Assembly: GCA_043228905.1 (NCBI GenBank)
Contig: JBHGNT010001402.1
Span: 1 to 8,972 of the forward strand
Origin: Azolla caroliniana
Taxonomy: Eukaryota > Plantae > Polypodiophyta
DNA length: 8,972 nucleotides
Reading direction: 5' to 3'
The position numbers and the translations under genes were made by a program. Positions 1 through 8,972 of the stretch are shown piece after piece (positions within the stretch are counted from its first letter, which is position 1; every line of letters begins with the position of its first letter). The notes under the pieces are model-generated. The model had not been told where the DNA came from. It was given only the letters and a program-made list of their open reading frames with translations, and made no database searches.

Positions 1-347
1 AATCGGGTGCTTCAATCCGTTGGGCAATTTGGATTGCCATATGGAATGTTGTCGGTCCCTGATCCATAACATGACGATATAGATCATGTCGTAACCATGG
101 TAGTAGGAAGTACAGCTTCATGGTCTCCTTCATGTTGGGGTCGACTCGAAGTAGTAGTTGTTTTAGCTTGACGGAAGTTGTGCCACCGGCTCGTTGGGTT
201 GTTGCCGGAGACTGTTTATTTGTTGTAGAGCAGATTTTGTCACATCATTGTTAGCGAAATGTTGTATGAGTTGCTCCTACAAATAGTGCCAATCGTTCTT
301 GATTTCTTCCGGTTGTTGTATAAACCACGTGGCGGCTACATGCTCAA
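1..347 (-). pseudogene. gag: Ty3/Gypsy-like LTR retrotransposon gag, 3' part
   Basis: Manual translation: EHVAATWFIQQPEEIKNDWHYL*EQLIQHFANNDVTKSALQQINSLRQQPNEPVAQ, frameshift near 175, then SVKLKQLLLRVDPNMKETMKLYFLLPWLRHDLYRHVMDQGPTTFHMAIQIAQRIE. This is a typical retrotransposon capsid pattern (A..W, W..L...L...F, L.Q...E.V, P.T...AI..A...E). In-frame stop at 277-279. Confidence 0.85.
344..347 (+). repeat. 4-bp target site duplication, left copy (TCAA)
   Basis: Directly abuts the left TIR and is identical to 7358-7361. Confidence 0.93.
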
Positions 348-372
348 GGGTAAAAGCATGCGAGTGGAAACA
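348..372 (+). repeat. Left terminal inverted repeat (25 bp)
   Basis: GGGTAAAAGCATGCGAGTGGAAACA versus the reverse complement of 7333-7357, GGGTGAAAGCATGCGAGTGGAAACA: one mismatch at position 5. Confidence 0.96.
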
Positions 373-702
373 CTATTATAGCTAATTAGCTACTAAAATG
401 GCCATAGCTAATTAGCTATTTGTTTAGCTAGTCTTTCTTGTGGGAAAATCAAATATTTGAAAAACTAATTTATGAAAAAACTCAAATATTTGAACTTCTG
501 TTTCAGACGTAGTGGAACTTGGGGAATATCACCATCATCTAAGGTCGACTTCAATGTCATCAATTTCCTGTTTAGCCTAAGTCTGATTTTGAACGCAGAT
601 GGAGTACTCAGAGCACGAACGCAGACGTAGCTCCCGCAACAGCAAAAAATCGACATTGCAGATTGAGAGCTACAACACAGAACCCGCTCGATCATCGTCC
701 AG

Positions 703-798
703 GTATGTTTCAGTTACAGAAACCCCAAACATTTGTTTTTTCTTTTTGACTACTGTCTGAACTTTGGTGCCGATTCATATTTCCCCAAAATCGAATAG
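703..798 (+). other. Possible 5'-UTR intron of the accessory gene
   Basis: Strong donor CAG|GTATGT at 703, T-rich interior, candidate acceptor AATAG ending at 798, upstream of the ATG at 827. Confidence 0.45.
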
Positions 799-826
799 GG
801 CGAAGTCCTTGGAGTCCCATACAAGG

Positions 827-2752
827 ATGTCTCGCAAATCGGGGAGTAGCAACAGGTGTGTTTATATTACTTTTTTTGTGTTTAATCCTGTCTTTAGTGA
901 TTAGGGTTTGTGATTGAAATTTCTGATTAGGGTTTGTGATTGAAATTTCTGATTAGGGTTTTTGATTATAAATTTCTGATTAGAATTTCTGAATAGGGTT
1001 TCTGGTTACAAATTTTGATTACAAATTAGAATTTCTGAATAGGGTTTTTGTTTATAAATTTCTGCTTAGGATTTCTGATTAGGGTTTGTGATTGAAATTT
1101 TTTATTAGGGTTTCTGATTGAAATTTCTGATTAGGGTTTTTATTATAAATTTCTGATTAGAATTTCTGAATAAGGTTTCTGGTTACAAACTTCTGATTAC
1201 AGATTTTGATTAGGGTTTCTGATTTCAAACTTCTGATTACAGATTTTGATTAGGGTTTCTGATTTCAAATTTCTGAATACAAATTATGATTAGGGTTTCT
1301 GATTTGCTAAGTTAAAGATTTTGCACCATTTTTGTTGTTGTTGATTGGGGTTTTTGATTCTCACATATTCTGATTTTGCACTATTTCTGATTTCTGAAAT
1401 GATATTTCAGATGGCTCGTTCCTCCGTATACGAGAGTGTTAAACTTCGCAAAATTTTGCGAGACAAAGGAGGACTTCCACAACACCTATGGTCTGTCACT
1501 CGAGGGTGTTGACCCTGCTGTCCTAAGTGATAAATTGATCAGTGATATAGACTGGATGACAGTATATACAGTGCCTAGAGTCAAAGGCAAGGTCAAGTTG
1601 AAGCATGTACGAGCCGACTTGTACGATGACTGCATGAGACTGCACCAGAAAGTTCATCAGGAGATCCCAGTCAACAATGAGTTGTCAGTTTCATTTGCTA
1701 GAGCATTTGCATATGAGTACTGCAAAACAGCGAAGGAATCTAGAGACCCTGAAATGTATAGGGTAGCTTGGGCAGTCTATGGTGAGGCATCGGTAAAAAG
1801 ATGCCGAAAGATGGGGACCTTGGCACAAAAAATAGACAGATTTTGGAGCATGGCAGCTGTTGATGCAACTGCCGACTCCCAGCAAGACCGGGGGCATACA
1901 CCACACCGACACCCAAGGAAAGCCAATGTCGATGATACAGGTGAGACATTGGTTAGCTATATGCTAAAAAATGTCCATGAAGCCTGTGAGACATTGGCAT
2001 TTTTTAAGACTAATTTAGAGAAAGCCACAATGGCTTCTGCAATGGAGAGCAAAGTTACTTCTGCTGTTACAACAATTAGAAATAAGATTCAGGTAACTAT
2101 TGTTTTGCTGGTATGTGATTGTGTTATAAATAACGGGTAAAATGTGCTAATCAAGCATTATCTGGAATAGGTTGCGCAACAGGAGCTTGAATTAGAGGGG
2201 CCACTGGATCCCCAGCGTAAAATAGAACTGCAAATAGAGATCCAGGTTCTTTCAATGAACCTGGACCTTCTAGGTGTAAATACTGTTGCAGATTACAATT
2301 TGGATAAGCTTCAAGTAAGTTAACGATTCCTGAGCAAAGTTGGTGTATCTTTCAACAACAAGAATAATTAATCGGTAAATTTCTCTGTTGCGTTGAAGGA
2401 ACAATACATTCATCAAGAACAGGTAGTTAGCTGCCTTAAGAAGAAGCTACATTTTGTGGAGGGAATGGTAAGGACCAGACAGGATTTGGACCTGAACATT
2501 CTTGCTCCCTTACCAAATGAAGTAGAACCAGAAAATGATTTATTGACAGTTCAAGCACGTTGCATCGCTTGCGGGTTAGGTGTGGAGGACAAAACTGCGT
2601 CTTTGTTGGTTCACCTACAACCATGCAACCACACATACCATCTGCTTTGTTTTCAACATGCCTGTCGAATTGCTGCATTCTGTTTGGGAGATTGCAGTAC
2701 AACTCTACCAAATGAGTGGAGAAAACAAACAGGTATACCATACTGTAGCTAA
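827..2752 (+). CDS. Spliced transposon accessory gene, ~402 aa: unassigned N-terminal domain, coiled-coil-like region, C-terminal RING-H2-like zinc finger (putative E3 ligase)
   Basis: Predicted exons 827-855, 1411-2092, 2171-2314, 2399-2752 (1,209 nt, no internal stop). All three introns are GT-AG and frame-compatible (AG|gtgtgt..ttcag|A; CAG|gtaact..aatag|G; CAA|gtaagt..tgaag|G). Protein MSRKSGSSNRWLVPPYTRVLNF...CIAC-x16-CNHTYHLLC-x10-CLGDC...W. The model joins ORFs 1436-2140 and 2393-2752. Confidence 0.8.
899..1305 (+). repeat. Telo-box-containing minisatellite (~26-bp unit GATTAGGGTTTGTGATTGAAATTTCT plus 13/39-40-bp variants) in intron 856-1410
   Basis: About 11 copies of TAGGGTTT (reverse complement of telo-box AAACCCTA), with first units at 899, 925 and 951. 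Confidence 0.9.
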
Positions 2753-3376
2753 TAAGCTTAGTCTTTTCTAATTAGCTATCCTACTAGCTAATTAGCTACT
2801 GGCAGCTAATGAGCTACTAGCTAATTAGCTATCCTAGTAGCTAATTAGCTATGGTACTAGCTAATTAGCTAGTACCATAGTTGTGTAAAAAAGCTAAATA
2901 GCTATCCTACTAGCTAATTAGCCACTGGCAACTAATTAGCTATCCTAGTACCTAATTAGCTACTGCCATAGTTGTGTAAAGTAGCTAATAAGCTATCCTA
3001 GTAGCTAGTTAGCTATGGTACTAGCTAATTAGCTAGTACCATAGTTGTGTAAAAAAGCTAATTAGCTATCCTACTAGCTAATTAGCTACTGGCAACTAAT
3101 TAGCAATCCTACTAGCTAATTAGCTATCCTACTAGCTAATTAGCTATCATAGTAGCTAATTAGCTACTGACATAATTGTGTAAAGTAGCTAATAAGCTAT
3201 CCTAGTAGCTAGTTAGCTATGGTACTAGCTAATTAGCTAGTACCATAGTTGTGTAAAAAAGCTAATTAGCTATCCTACTAGCTAATTAGCTATCCTACTA
3301 GCTAATTAGCTACTGACATAGTTGTGTAAAGTAGCTAATAAGCTATCCTAGTAGCTAATTAGCTACTGGCAGCTAA
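2746..3376. repeat. Palindromic satellite array A (core TAGCTAATTAGCTA, ~20-bp units, higher-order blocks marked by TTGTGTAAA)
   Basis: Directly visible; lies between the two convergent genes and contains three perfect 32-bp palindromes at 2849-2880, 3013-3044 and 3217-3248. Confidence 0.95.
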
Positions 3377-5934
3377 CTTCACAGAGATCAATATTTCACT
3401 ACTCAATTCATTTGGACACCACCTAAATCTAGTAGGGCCACAATCTTGACATAAACCCATGACACATTTATGAATATGGAAGATAGCGTCAGTTTCTCTC
3501 GGACACAATATTGAATCTAATAAATAACTCATGGAAGAGATAACGTGCTCAGATGATTTACACTCCTCTTGCGGGCTTGATCGACAGATTGGGCACCCAC
3601 ATGTGCAAACTGTATTAGTTAGGGATGCGCTATGGTGACGTAGTAGATTAACAGAGTCCTTCAGAAAACCCATCTGTACATGGTAAATGCAACAACATGT
3701 GTATCGATCCTTTAAGCGTCTCACAAAGTGTGGCTTAAGAGACTCGAATGTTCGTAGTTGAACTTTGATAGTTGGATGCATTCGTTTGAACCTAATAAAT
3801 AAATCGACCTGCGTAATAAAGGGGAATTAGTTATTCTCGTAACTAGCTAACTATCCTAGTAGCTAATTAGTTGTCCTAGTAGCTAATTAGCTATCATGGT
3901 AGTTAATTAGCTGTCGTAGTAGCTAATTAGCTATCATGGTAGCTAATTAGCTATTCTAGTAGCTAATTAGCTATCATGGTAGCTAATTAGCTGTCGTAGT
4001 AGCTAATTAGCTATCATGGTAGCTAATTAGCTGTCCTAGTAGCTAATTGGTTGTCCTAGTAGCTAATTAGCTATCATGGTAGCTAATTAGCTGTCATAGT
4101 AGCTAATTAGCTATTCTAGTAGCTAATTGGTTGTCCTAGAAGCTAATTAGCTATCATGGTAGCTAATTAGCTATCGTAGTAGCTAATTAGCTATCATGGT
4201 AGCTAATTAGCTATTCTAGTAGCTAATTAGCTATTCTAGTAGCTAATTAGCTATCATGGTAGCTAATTAGTTGTCGTAGTAGCTAATTAGCTATCATGGT
4301 AGCTAATTAGCTGTCCTAGTAGCTAATTAGTTGTCCTAGTAGCTAATTAGCTATCATGGTAGCTAATTAGCTGCTCTAGTAGCTAATTAGCTATCATGGT
4401 GGCTAATTAGCTATTCTAGTAACTAATTAGCTATCATGGTAGCTAATTAGCTGGTCTAGTAGCTAATTAGCTATCATGGTGGCTAATTAGCTTTCCTAGT
4501 AACTAATTAGCTATCATGGTAGCTAATTAGTTGGTCTAGTAGCTAATTAGCTATCGTGGTAGCTAATTAGCTGGTCTAGTAGCTAATTAGCTATAATGGT
4601 GGCTGATTAGCTTTCCTAGTAACTAATTAGCTATCATGGTAGCTAATTAGCTGGTATAGTAGCTAATTAGCTATCATGGTAGCTAATTAGCTATCACGGT
4701 GGCTAATTAGCTGTCCTAGTAACTAATTAGCTATCATGGTAGCTAATTAGCTGGTCTAGTAGCTAATTAGCTATAATGGTGGCTAATTAGCTATCCTAAC
4801 TAATTAGCTATCATGGTAGTGGCTATTGAGAGTAGCCAGTTACCTATGTAGTAGCTATCATAGTAGCTAATTAGCTATCATGGTAGCTAATTAGCTTTCC
4901 TAGTAGCTAATTAGCTGGTAATAACGAAATAGCTAACTAGCTACCATGATAGCTAACTAGCTAGCAGTACAGCTAATTATCTGGTAGTACCTAAATTAGC
5001 TATTGAGAATAGCTAATTAGCTATCATGGTAGTAACTATTGAGAGTAGCTAGTTACCTATGTAGTAGCGATCCTAGTAGCTAACTGAGGTAAATGTAACT
5101 GATAAGCTAATTAGCTTTTCTGCTAACTGAGCTAATTAACTTTCCGAGTAGAGTCAAAACAAATGTTGAGATAAATGTAAATACCTAAGGTACATCAAGA
5201 AGATGAATGGGATGCTCCTCGTATTGATTTCTTCCAACACGTTTCCTGCATAAATCCTTTTTATTGGGTGAAACCCTACTCTCATTAGTCCAAAACATTG
5301 TGATTACATCCTTGATTTCAAATGTTATGGGTGTCATTGGCTTACATCTTGTAGTTAGCTTTAGTAGACTAGTTCCTTCACCCGAGGAAATTATACGGTT
5401 CATTGTATTGTACACTTTTTTTCTACTAACACCAATTACCTTAGATAGCTCACTGATGTTTATATCGTCAACATCACTATTAAGTAACATCATTAGACTA
5501 GATCTTTTTAAGACAAGATCATCTTCTGACCTACTCATGGATACGAAACTATTACGAAGATTATTTACTAAAATAGATGATATGTTTGCATTAAGACCAT
5601 CACAATCAACTAAGTCCTTTATCGATGGATCATTACATATTCCATAAAGTACTACCTTCTTTTCTTCATTGCTGATGTGCTTGGTTTGAACATTGAAATT
5701 GTCTACAACCTTTCTCTCTATGATGGTAGTCGCATTACTTACATTCTCAGCTAAACTATCCTTACCTTTACTGAGTGTGGCTTTCGTATCCTTCAACAAT
5801 TGACGATGTTTCCTTTTTTTTTCTGCCCAATAGTTTCGTATGGCTTGTTGTGTCCTGATAACATCATCCCTATCCTTATGATCATTGAGGGGTAATTCTA
5901 AACACCATTCTTCCCCTTCCATTTGGCTAGACAT
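3377..5934 (-). pseudogene. Sola-like transposase, N-terminal ~394 codons only; nonsense codon and no catalytic domain
   Basis: Exon 5934-5185 has an HTH-like ISELSKVIGVSRKKVY and FW...SRVSPNKKD...HLL. Donor TAG|GTATTT at 5184; acceptor with CTAAT branch point and TTACGCAG ending at 3809. Exon 3808-3377 reads VDLFIRFKRMHPTIKVQLRTFESLKPHFV...TCCCIYH...CP...C..G.C..CG. This resembles the Sola2-type SR..P.KKD / F...HP......F..L(R/K)P / C.C..H succession. The last codon of exon 1 is TAG (probably ex-CAG). Confidence 0.75.
3843..5138. repeat. Palindromic satellite array B (14-bp palindrome + 6-bp spacer, 20-bp period) filling the transposase intron
   Basis: About 47 units in exact 20-bp register from ~3860 to ~4795, then degenerate to ~5138; lies within predicted intron 3809-5184. 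Confidence 0.95.
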
Positions 5935-6269
5935 GTTAAAACCCTAAATTTCCAGAAAAAAAAACAAGTATTAAAGATGGCTATGGGCAACAACAATACA
6001 CAAAAATATTCCACACAATACACAAGATTAGACACAACAATACACAAGATAATCAATAGACAGAAAAGTTATTGCAATCCAAGACCAAACAGTAGAGGAT
6101 TTCACTCTGTTGGATCCAACAGTTGAGGAGGCGATCCAAGACCGACCAATGGCAACAACTGAGTGTAGAATGTTGCCGTTGGATGAGTGAACTCCGTCAA
6201 ATCGAAATGTGGAAGCAATCCGGGACTGGACAGTAGTGGCAACTGAGTATAGAATGATGGCAATGGAGG

Positions 6270-7004
6270 AGAGAACCCCGTCAGATTGAACAGTTACCGA
6301 TGATGCTTGAAACGCACATAGAAGGCACTTGAGAATAGAGTGGCATAGAGAAGAGAACCCCGTCAGATTGAACAGTTACCAATGATGCTTGAAACGCACA
6401 GTAGCGGCCCCTGAGTGAGAGTGGAAAAGAGAAGAGAACCCCGTCAGATTGAACAGTTACCAATGATGCTTGAAACGCACAGTAGCGGCCCCTGAGTGAG
6501 AGTGGAAAAGAGAAGAGAACCCCGTCAGATTGAATAGCTCTTTGATTATGCTTGGAACGCACAGTAGCAACCCCTGAGTGTAGAGTGGCAAAGAGAAGAG
6601 AACCCCGTCAGATTGAACAGCTCTTTGATGATGCTTGGAACGCACAGCAGCGGCCCCTGAGTGTAGAGTGGCACAGAGAAGAGAACCCCCTCAGATTGAA
6701 CAGCTCTTTGATGATGCTTGGAACGCACAGTAATGGCCCCTGAGTGTAGAGTGGCACAGAGAAGAGAACCCCCTCAGATTGAACAGCTCTTTGATGATGC
6801 TTGGAACGCACAGTAATGGCCCCTGAGTGTAGAGTGGCACAGAGAAGAGAACCCCGTCAGATTGAATAGCTCTTTGATGATGCTTGGAATGCACAGTAGT
6901 GGCCCCTGAGTGTAGAGTGTCACAGAGAAGAGAACCCTGTCAGATTGAGCAGCTCTTTGATGATGCTTGGAACGCACAGTAGCGGCCCCTCAGTGTAGAG
7001 TGGC
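6270..7004. repeat. 81-83-bp tandem repeat, 9 units, upstream of the transposase
   Basis: GAACC anchors at 6273, 6355, 6436, 6517, 6600, 6683, 6766, 6849 and 6932. Unit ~AGAGAAGAGAACCCCGTCAGATTGAACAGCTCTTTGATGATGCTTGGAACGCACAGTAGCGGCCCCTGAGTGTAGAGTGGCAC. Degenerate relics near 6159 and 6243. Confidence 0.96.
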
Positions 7005-7332
7005 GGCAGGTGGACTCGATAGGGTTTAGCAACAGTGGTAGCAACTAACCCACAGTACTCAACTAGAGATGGCCTACGTGATGTGGCAAAGGATCATGCA
7101 TAATGGACCTAGGAATTCGATATATAATTTATGGTACACATTTATGGTGCACACATCAATTTATGTTGCACATTTATGGCACTCATTTACATATGTAATT
7201 AAAACACTCTAGTATTTTCAATGGTAGTTTTTTGCATACTTAATTTATTAATGATGGCTTTTTACTAAAATGACTATTTATCAATGGTAGCTTTTTGCAT
7301 AGCTAATTAGCTATGTCAAGGACATAGCTAAT

Positions 7333-7357
7333 TGTTTCCACTCGCATGCTTTCACCC
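7333..7357 (-). repeat. Right terminal inverted repeat (25 bp)
   Basis: TGTTTCCACTCGCATGCTTTCACCC, 24/25 inverted match to 348-372. Confidence 0.96.
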
Positions 7358-7361
7358 TCAA
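7358..7361 (+). repeat. 4-bp target site duplication, right copy (TCAA)
   Basis: Directly abuts the right TIR; keeping one copy gives minus-strand ACA ATA TTT GAG CAT GTA (TIFEHV) in frame. Confidence 0.93.
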
Positions 7362-7665
7362 ATATTGTTCGCATCTCCAATGCTTTTCTTTCATCATTCC
7401 AATAGTGATAGCTTGCGACGAGGTCAAAATGATCTAGCCAAGCTAGTATATCCTCTGTGGGGAGACCGGAGAATGATCTTGGACGTATTCGGGAATCTTT
7501 TCTTTGATCACTTATTGTTCCTATAGATTGAGATTGAAAGGTGAGCCATGTTATGAGTGCTTGATTCGTGTGATTACTTGAATCATCATCGTAGACATCG
7601 CTTGGAACATTTGCTCTAGCTAATTCGGGTAAAAATGAAGGTTTAAAATTTGTTAATACCGTCAA
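7358..7665 (-). pseudogene. gag: Ty3/Gypsy-like gag, 5' part (same gene as 1-347)
   Basis: ORF 7303-7665 contains PRSFSGLPTEDILAWLDHFDLVASYHYWNDERKALEMRTIF, the P..F.G...ED...W...F......W gag N-terminal pattern. The ORF's last residues (GESMRVET...) are read-through into the TIR. True start codon uncertain. Confidence 0.85.
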
Positions 7666-7876
7666 ATTTTGCTAAGGCCAAAGCAATAGTACATGTATTA
7701 GTAGTTACAAATTACAATTCATAGGCTATAGCATATAGTTTTATTTGAGAAGGGTAAATGTGTAAACATATGTTATGTGATATGATAAAGGAGAAAAAGT
7801 GCCCGAACATATGCATAGTGTGAAAATAAACTTAGGGCTTCTTCTCTTTTCAGCCCATTCCTCTCTTTTGCCTGTT

Positions 7877-7892
7877 TCTCTCTCTCTCTCTC
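7877..7892 (+). repeat. (TC)8 microsatellite in a pyrimidine-rich tract
   Basis: Directly visible. Confidence 0.85.
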
Positions 7893-8068
7893 TTTCTCTA
7901 GCCACGCCATCACACCACAATACATTTCACACATGAGCTCTCTGACATATATTCTCGACATGTTCAAGCCCATCTCTCCTCCCTTGATCCATCCCTACCT
8001 TTAGAGAGCCTTAGTATGTAAAACTCACACACATCCTTCACTCCGCAACAATTAGCAGTTTCCCATAT

Positions 8069-8532
8069 ATGAAACACTTCAATCAAGGTAGATTAGGATC
8101 TATGCCACAAAATAGATGGTATGATGACGATTGTAGGAACTTACATAGACAACTTACAATATTGCAACTCAGTGGTAGTATTACCTCAGTACAAGCTCGC
8201 AAAGAAATGCACAAGATGGCACGTCATAAGAGACGAGCATGGGAGGCATCCCAATCTTGGGAAATCTACCATATGCTCATGAGTAGCGATTGCGCCACTG
8301 CATGGAAGAGATTACGGGAACTAAGACCACAAACACCCATCGAAGATCCTGAAACCTGGCACACATATAAAGAGAGACTTTACCAATTCCCAAACCAACC
8401 ACCCATTCCAATGCCTTCTACACCCCGACCTACCGTGGGGACACTTTTCATGACCTCTAGGGTCGTGAAGGTCATAAAGAAATTACAACATAGGAAGTCC
8501 ATGGACCACAGAAGATTGCGAGCAGAATACAT
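8069..8532 (+). pseudogene. Non-LTR retrotransposon (LINE) ORF2 fragment: linker between endonuclease and reverse transcriptase
   Basis: WYDDDCR (W.D.EC motif), AWKRLR, W.....LY, then F....V...IKKLQHRKSMDHRRLRAEYI resembling the K(A/S).G.D.I..E motif at the start of the LINE RT region. The sequence changes abruptly at 8533. Confidence 0.8.
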
Positions 8533-8972
8533 TGTTGGGAACACCGTCTTCTAATGCGGAACAAGCTCAACACTCTTCTAAGATAAGATCGTAAATGGAT
8601 GCAAGATCATAGCTTTGATGGCAACAAAGAAAGAAAGTAAAAGACAACTACTTTGCAAGAGAGAGAGAGTTAGAGTTCAATGAAGTTTATTACAAACTTT
8701 TTAGAAAATGAGCAACCAACCCATTGTCGTGAAGATTTCCGGCTATAGTGTGAAACCGGGGTGGAATAGGGCAAGTCGGTGGTTCAACATGTGCACATGT
8801 ATAGTAGGAAACGGTGTATAGAATAAAGGGGAGTATTTGTCCCACATTGTAACGCCCTCCCCTCCTTGGTCTATAAAAGGAGGGAGGGGTCCCTTGTTGA
8901 GGGGTTGCCCATTTTGAGTTAGGAGGGTATATTGTTAGATTTAGGGTTAGACAGTTTCTCTTATTCTTGCTT
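8533..8972 (+). mobile_element. Probable LTR of an LTR retrotransposon, running off the window
   Basis: Starts with TGTTGG exactly where LINE similarity ends; CTATAAAAGG TATA box at 8871-8880; TTAGGGTT and a pyrimidine-rich tract downstream. The other end is not visible. Confidence 0.6.
8855..8889 (+). promoter_or_regulatory. TATA box within an inverted repeat (putative LTR promoter)
   Basis: CCCTCCCCTCCTT (8855-8867), TATAAAA (8872-8878), AAGGAGGGAGGGG (8877-8889). Confidence 0.55.

Follow-up and report, generated by a model that had tools for sequence, protein, structure and literature searches.

A young Sola2-like transposon family of Azolla caroliniana with a conserved second gene and palindrome arrays in its introns

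Results

The element and its target site

We analysed an 8,972-bp stretch of DNA from the fern Azolla caroliniana (assembly GCA_043228905.1, contig JBHGNT010001402.1; here called the window), in which lies a DNA transposon with two convergent, intron-containing genes: a transposase very probably of the Sola2 superfamily, and an accessory gene whose product possibly binds a short palindrome amplified in the element's own introns (Table 1). The element occupies positions 348–7357 and is bounded by two 25-bp terminal inverted repeats (TIRs), which have GGG and CCC as their outer ends and differ at a single base; it is flanked on both sides by TCAA as a 4-bp target-site duplication (TSD), in agreement with the boundaries drawn in a first-pass annotation made from the letters alone. 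That annotation had also reconstructed an empty site from the flanks, and a natural one is present in the same assembly on chromosome C4 (~17.3356 Mb), where the flanks are joined by a single TCAA. This site matches the left flank over 347 nt at 99.7% identity (1 substitution) and the right flank over 1615 nt at 97.2% (19 substitutions, 2 indels), and over 7600–8972 the C4 locus was the sole collinear match among the 40 scored. The insertion point is also uninterrupted in 8 of 10 other paralogues retrieved, and a natural uninterrupted paralogue of the target (L201) matches Pfam Retrotrans_gag (E 4e-7). Since the window is a whole 8972-bp contig and C4 carries the unoccupied site, the contig would most simply be the other haplotype of the C4 locus, and the empty allele in the same assembly makes the insertion likely polymorphic and recent; alternatively, the window may be a recent segmental duplicate of that locus. 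The interval C4:17335229-17337167 corresponds to the window locus without the element at ~1% divergence, and the assembly probably holds both alleles.

The first-pass annotation recognised both genes and overlooked that each is truncated by an internal deletion of ~4.6 kb. Lost with it are the acidic and NIF exons, the 3' untranslated regions and transposase exon-2 residues 145–613, leaving the copy devoid of the DDD core. In addition, the last codon of transposase exon 1 is TAG in the window, as against CAG in 22 of the 23 copies that can be read there. With its catalytic core gone, its second gene cut off from the 3' exons and a stop at the end of exon 1, the window copy is dead. It would have been moved in trans by the transposase of an intact copy, or the deletion came after insertion.

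Table 1. Features of the window, with the observations on which each rests.
Feature	Position	Strand	Basis
Insertion target, left part: decayed long terminal repeat (LTR)-retrotransposon gag, outside the element, resuming rightwards from 7362	1..343	-	Uninterrupted paralogue L201 = Pfam Retrotrans_gag
Left TSD, TCAA	344..347	.	Only exact flanking duplication for k=2-11; single copy at natural empty allele
Left TIR, 25 bp, GGG end	348..372	+	Repeat match
Subterminal 12-bp palindrome AGCTAATTAGCT, present twice (380, 406)	380..417	.	Repeat search
Accessory first coding exon, ATG at 827	799..855	+	Contig ends of runs X1 and X2 match 823-852 directly before 1408; phases
Accessory intron with degenerate 13/26/40-bp repeat (898-1305)	856..1410	+	Repeat scan, spliced contigs
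Accessory exon: A-domain (~150 aa) and start of likely coiled coil	1411..2092	+	Model, homologues, dN/dS
Accessory exon, 48 codons	2171..2314	+	Three RNA-like runs lack the GT..AG intron before it (2093-2170)
Accessory exon that encodes a RING-H2-like finger (2561-2695); its splice donor at 2733 is of phase 1	2399..2732	+	Weak Pfam RING; RING-bearing homologues
Palindrome array 1 (~20-bp unit), all that is left of the long intron of the accessory gene	2766..3376	.	Repeat scan
Junction of ~4.6-kb internal deletion, 3-nt TAA microhomology	3374..3376	.	Comparison with full copies
Transposase exon 2 remnant: 144 of 613 codons, Cys/His-rich region, without DDD core	3375..3808	-	Full-copy comparison
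Transposase intron with palindrome array 2 (3841-5134, 20/40-bp period)	3809..5184	-	20 related loci share the position of this intron
Transposase exon 1: 250 codons, weak helix-turn-helix (HTH) match, last codon stop in window copy	5185..5934	-	Pfam scan, copy comparison
83-bp tandem array, 9.3 copies, upstream of transposase, without palindrome core	6230..7004	.	Repeat scan
Right subterminal palindrome (7301) and partial site abutting TIR	7301..7336	.	Repeat search
Right TIR, 25 bp, CCC end	7333..7357	-	Repeat match
Right TSD, TCAA	7358..7361	.	Repeat match

A young family with 4-bp target-site duplications

A search of the genome with the exact TIR, as the first-pass annotation had proposed, gave 552 matches, against 0 for a reversed-TIR control. 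We examined the TSDs of the 31 inward-facing pairs among the first 100 matches listed, together with the window, leaving out one pair (L231/L232) whose ends lie on the same strand. An exact 4-bp duplication was the longest match in all 32 exact-TIR pairs, as compared with 0.25 expected from mismatched pairs; one older copy with near-match TIRs, reached by another route, has no matching TSD. The duplicated sequences differ between copies and are AT-rich (74% vs 58% in the flanks), and the single TIR mismatch is a fixed A/G asymmetry in all listed pairs. Full copies are mostly 10–12 kb long (11–12 kb for those that encode the 863-residue transposase), and the exons of the main family differ from the majority sequence by a median of 0.3% (transposase, A-domain) to 1.3% (NIF). 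Of 26 copies, 11 have an unbroken frame throughout the 613-codon transposase exon, and a 193-residue catalytic core is identical in 54 of 150 scored genome matches, that is, in at least 54 copies. By these measures the family is young and probably active. Among copies, C-to-T changes are ~4 to 16 times as frequent at CG/CHG as at CHH, a bias that reads as a methylation footprint of the plant type. Genome searches with distant transposases returned nothing beyond the window's family among the scored candidates.

On chromosome C1 (37.3 Mb), 20 of the 21 exact TIR matches listed lie at 9.4–24.4 Mb, an interval chosen post hoc; targeting and selection are candidate causes of this central clustering.

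A Sola2 transposase with a predicted BAH-like tail

The first-pass annotation counted GRG termini among the marks of Sola2; the terminal bases of the element are GGG. In full copies the transposase comprises 863 residues (250 + 613), with an HTH match in exon 1 (E 6.5e-5, just under the Pfam cut-off) and, in exon 2, three aspartates (D215, D298, D339) kept in at least 90% of 46 homologues. Nine of the ten patterns taken from the published Sola2 alignment (PMC3627910, Additional file 10) occur in order in the full copy tested; the tenth is a one-residue variant there and is present in the window's exon 1. The spacing between the second and third aspartates, 41 residues, equals that of Sola2-2_HM. 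No transposase family was matched in the Pfam scan of the window's open reading frames (ORFs) and the catalytic exon, and a Foldseek search of the PDB with the transposase returned nothing at E<=0.001. The structural model (pLDDT 86.5) has an RNase H core that resembles integrases and Mos1 (Z ~10), with no Sola2 transposase among its structure matches. The DDD core together with the TSDs indicates that transposition is of the cut-and-paste type with a 4-bp stagger.

Full-length copies with a DDD core were recovered and a tree was built, as the first-pass annotation had also suggested. Named homologues come from moss, liverwort, ferns and conifers, and in a quick tree of 108 core sequences, which contained no named Sola reference rows and raised long-branch warnings, all named plant members and the window family form one clade (SH-aLRT 99), with a fish sequence apart. 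The Sola2 placement proposed by that annotation is in our view very probably right, given the ordered motifs, the DDD triad and the 4-bp TSD. A fish homologue (P0115) is labelled sentrin-specific protease by its source, which suggests an Ulp1-type fusion on an animal relative.

The first-pass annotation had missed the C-terminal region of the transposase, which we predict to be BAH-like. For residues 485–604 of the whole-protein model, all 7 covering structure rows were BAH-bearing (DNMT1, ZMET2, MTA1, ORC1, DIM2, EBS, ORC1b), at middling scores (Z 6.2–6.7, rmsd 2.8–3.9 Å, 79–96 residues aligned), and conservation of this domain was seen in 55 of the 120 homologues that we examined. At the level of sequence, the BAH profile PF01426 gave an HHalign probability of 2.3% against the tail, sequence searches with the tail returned no PDB or Pfam BAH match, and the tail was not among the genome's 18 BAH matches; an ESM Atlas search with the domain returned unnamed eukaryotic clusters alone, at 0.89. 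The published Sola2 alignment ends before this region, so that a comparison of the tail with animal Sola2 lies outside its span.

The accessory gene and its modular product

The four accessory exons of the window have compatible GT-AG phases. Contigs of RNA-like runs, all from one study of a ~95% identical relative and with their RNA status guessed, skip intron 2093–2170 exactly in three runs and join the first coding exon to 1411 in two; this intron is unspliced in run X5. A homologue (P0128) is continuous across the position of the same intron. A donor-like site suggests an upstream non-coding exon ending at 702. Without splicing, the frame that leaves the RING exon runs into a stop at 2752; full copies have a phase-1 acceptor beyond the array, which leads into an acidic exon with a basic end and then into a NIF/FCP1-like exon, an extension of the gene that had escaped the first-pass annotation. 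None of the RNA-like contigs spans the RING-to-acidic, acidic-to-NIF or transposase splice junctions. Because two predicted homologues (P0201, P0272) hold the A-domain, a RING-like region and NIF in one chain, we favour a reading of these exons as one gene.

The A-domain model is confident (pLDDT 93.5), and a search of 1.84 billion representative sequences gave 148 relatives of the domain at E<=0.001. It found no match in Pfam, the PDB (Foldseek), BFVD or the ESM Atlas (best 0.78), and a wide VIA structure search returned six chains at Z 2.0–2.6; its modelled fold may be new, a lack of structural match being no proof of this. In two predicted proteins (P0199, P0282) the domain is fused to gag; we set these aside as likely chimeric gene calls, noting that the window element itself sits in gag.

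The catalytic motif of FCP1/SCP phosphatases is DxDx(T/V). The NIF exon matches PF03031 above cut-off (E 2.5e-7), with a weak alignment to UBLCP1, and thus shares its family match with the FCP1/SCP/UBLCP1 HAD phosphatases, from which it differs in its altered catalytic motif: at the corresponding position our element has ELDKV, and relatives have DLNGV, DLNGL or DMNGL. Because of this alteration the domain is likely inactive or atypical.

That the second gene is fixed in the family, as had been suggested, is borne out by its retention. The A-domain exon is kept in 25 of 25 fully retrieved copies, and A-domain, NIF and DDD core together in 17 of 25. Against four diverged copies, whose decay raises the values, the ratio of nonsynonymous to synonymous substitution (dN/dS) was 0.21–0.37 for the A-domain, 0.33 for NIF, 0.38–0.55 for the linker and 0.29–0.40 for transposase exon 2, with 0.35 and 0.71 for the RING exon.

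The exon before NIF (L032:4100-4250) contains a 13-codon repeat whose copy number is variable and always in frame, the ORFs that span it being 353, 366, 379, 392 or 405 aa long; variable peptide repeats are likewise described for VANC proteins (PMC5735166).

Palindrome arrays and other repeats

The internal repeat arrays proposed in the first-pass annotation are present, and those made of the palindrome are located in the two long introns. The palindrome AGCTAATTAGCT occurs 54 times in the window, and main-family copies longer than 10 kb have 35–91 perfect cores. The left end holds two of the palindromes and the right end one; a small number lie between the genes, and all others in the two introns. 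The core is retained in a diverged subfamily, with a spacing of 19/33 bp as against 20 bp in the main family. Genome-wide, tandem palindrome pairs occur at 7378 places.

Diverged copies contain an array related to the 83-bp array but differently phased. The degenerate repeat at 898–1305 in the accessory intron is rich in TTAGGGTTT, which we take to resemble telomere or telo-box motifs. Outside the element, the right flank contains a high-copy repeat (7902–8532) with at least 38 other matches at 91–94% and a 179-aa ORF without a Pfam family; by eye, a TATA-like motif and purine runs give positions 8690–8972 the look of an LTR start.

The gene pair in distant relatives

A convergent accessory ORF stands beside a distant transposase in 6 of 80 metagenome loci, with NIF in L105 and L108 and the A-domain in L112 (together with RING), L114, L115 and L173 (HHalign 96%). 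The transposases of these relatives are 39–48% identical and lie on both large subclades of the tree. Most of the other loci are short or decayed, several long ones showed no accessory ORF, and in 20 long loci no TIR pair with a TSD was found.

Both ends of the transposase exons could be located in 37 loci, 17 of them without the intron, 7 with a short and 13 with a long one. An over-represented 9-mer is present in 7 of the 13 long introns, one of which is the window family's, and it differs from lineage to lineage. Relatives L102 and L106 repeat a motif of their own in the intron and elsewhere, and in the short-intron group it is a different intron that holds a palindrome array. A related Sola2-like family (L142, L143, L149, L154) carries a ATTAGTACTAAT palindrome array in an intron within the catalytic region. 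A further set of loci (L120-L123, L129, L133, L136, L138, L145-L151, L160, L167, L168) has transposases of 28–36% identity without the intron; those included in the tree lie near conifer sequences, and no accessory gene was detected in these loci.

Discussion

Sola cargo genes and plant Sola/Sola2 elements are already in print, and earlier reports show the first-pass view of Sola as mostly non-plant and usually transposase-only to be overstated. They describe Sola in Physcomitrella (PMC10741241) and Azolla (PMC6786969), and Sola2 as the most abundant DNA superfamily in Cupressus (a preprint). Sola2-Fanzor elements of Dictyostelium and Polysphondylium likewise combine a Sola2 transposase, a second gene and a 4-bp TSD (PMC3627910); their cargo is Fanzor, and no Fanzor/TnpB family was matched in any exon scanned here. 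Sola1-1_Ec32 of Ectocarpus is, like our element, a large Sola element with an accessory gene on the opposite strand, but it belongs to Sola1 and carries ParB and an amino-methyltransferase proposed to act on its own element (PMC12477816), whereas here we find an unclassified domain, RING and a degenerate NIF, with no methyltransferase match in Pfam scans of the element. With published Sola2 the element shares the ordered DDD motifs, the AT-rich 4-bp TSD and short TIRs, and it differs in its fixed, convergent and spliced second gene, its intron palindrome arrays and its predicted BAH-like tail. A literature search gave no account of this accessory gene, of the arrays or of a BAH-tailed transposase; subscription journals, Repbase Reports and bioRxiv supplements (such as the Cupressus transposon library) lay beyond its range and may hold this family.

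En/Spm, a CACTA element, encodes a second protein, TnpA, which is transposase-derived and regulates its element through short subterminal motifs; the A-domain, unlike TnpA, shows no link to a transposase. VANDAL elements are of the MULE type and have long TSDs. Their VANC proteins target short motifs that have been amplified into intronic tandem repeats and that differ between related families, and both motif binding and demethylation by VANC have been demonstrated (PMC5735166). An accessory gene and family-specific short motifs in intronic tandem arrays are thus common to both systems, and because of this shared layout we propose, with a probability of roughly 0.4, that the second gene of our element encodes a sequence-specific helper of the VANC/TnpA kind, which would bind the element's own AGCTAATTAGCT palindromes. 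Different here are the 4-bp TSD and the absence of MULE and of DUF1985/DUF287 from the Pfam matches of the scanned exons. In the proposed mechanism, the A-domain, joined to the coiled coil, would dock on the 50–90 palindromes that lie within the two long introns and near either end, and the RING, the acidic linker and the probably inactive FCP1-like domain would recruit or remove host factors. Transcription and splicing could then proceed through an otherwise CG/CHG-methylated element, whose expression would be kept up against host silencing, while the predicted BAH-like tail of the transposase would act as a reader of chromatin at target sites.

Several observations weigh against such a helper. 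There is no known DNA-binding fold that the A-domain resembles, and its excess of basic residues is slight (K+R 23 vs D+E 21). DUF1985 and DUF287, the VANC families, were matched neither by the window's exons nor among the weak families (25 of 34 covered) of 46 A-domain homologues. One RING-exon comparison reached a dN/dS of 0.71, and the NIF domain, whose junction with the acidic exon is putative, may belong to a product of its own or to an alternative one. The excess of C-to-T changes at CG/CHG implies that copies have been methylated over time. As to the arrays, the test applied to them passes any tandem repeat, the conservation of the core is inflated because sites were selected at 2 mismatches or fewer, no array is seen in 6 of the 12 long introns from other lineages, the motifs of some relatives only are palindromic, and L112, although it carries the accessory gene, lacks an array in that intron. 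Finally, palindromes also flank the TIRs, where transposases usually bind.

This last point leads to the strongest rival, which we consider somewhat unlikely: the transposase itself would bind the palindrome, the intron arrays would be amplified copies that serve autoregulation or synapsis, and the accessory protein would be a cofactor without DNA specificity. Subterminal transposase-binding sites are found in hAT and CACTA elements, palindromes lie 8–60 bp inside both TIRs here, and exon 1 offers the HTH match; moreover, transposases are described as sequence-specific activators in a 2026 preprint (10.64898/2026.08.24.746577). Yet ~95% of the palindromes are deep in the introns, one diverged copy has a perfect TSD without a full right-end site, and the conserved A-domain would be left unexplained. 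Less probable still, the arrays would be neutral minisatellites grown by slippage, and the accessory protein, acting without sequence specificity, a likely E3 ligase or a pseudo-phosphatase decoy against a silencing factor. The variation in array length among the main-family copies, the growth of unrelated 13-bp and 83-bp repeats in the same element, and RING and a degenerate NIF as protein-interaction modules all fit this account; it sits poorly with one core shared by two introns, both ends and the intergenic region, with spacers that differ in two subfamilies, and with the repetition of own motifs in the intron and elsewhere in L102 and L106. A placement of the element in a different DDD/E superfamily or in a sister group without a name, with recent Pack-type cargo as its second gene, is very improbable, for although the core has no Pfam family and its placement rests on a motif alignment and a tree without named Sola1/2/3, the match to the Sola2 alignment is ordered, the 4-bp TSD is AT-rich, and the gene pair is shared with transposases 39–48% identical at dN/dS <1.

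We return to the helper reading in its fullest form, which we hold to be doubtful as a whole: an old land-plant Sola2 lineage would have a self-addressed anti-silencing system independent of VANC, in which a DNA-binding domain of new fold, joined in one protein to RING and a pseudo-phosphatase, would co-evolve with family-specific intron arrays, and a BAH reader would steer insertion by histone marks. There are few plant transposons for which sequence-specific anti-silencing has been proven. If the reading is true, this would be a second, unrelated system with matched protein–motif pairs, whose recognition code would be testable and which might offer a programmable chromatin tool. As a young family with at least 54 core-identical copies and a likely polymorphic insertion, it is also a candidate for the first biochemistry of a Sola2 transposase and for the study of a possible BAH-guided DNA transposase.

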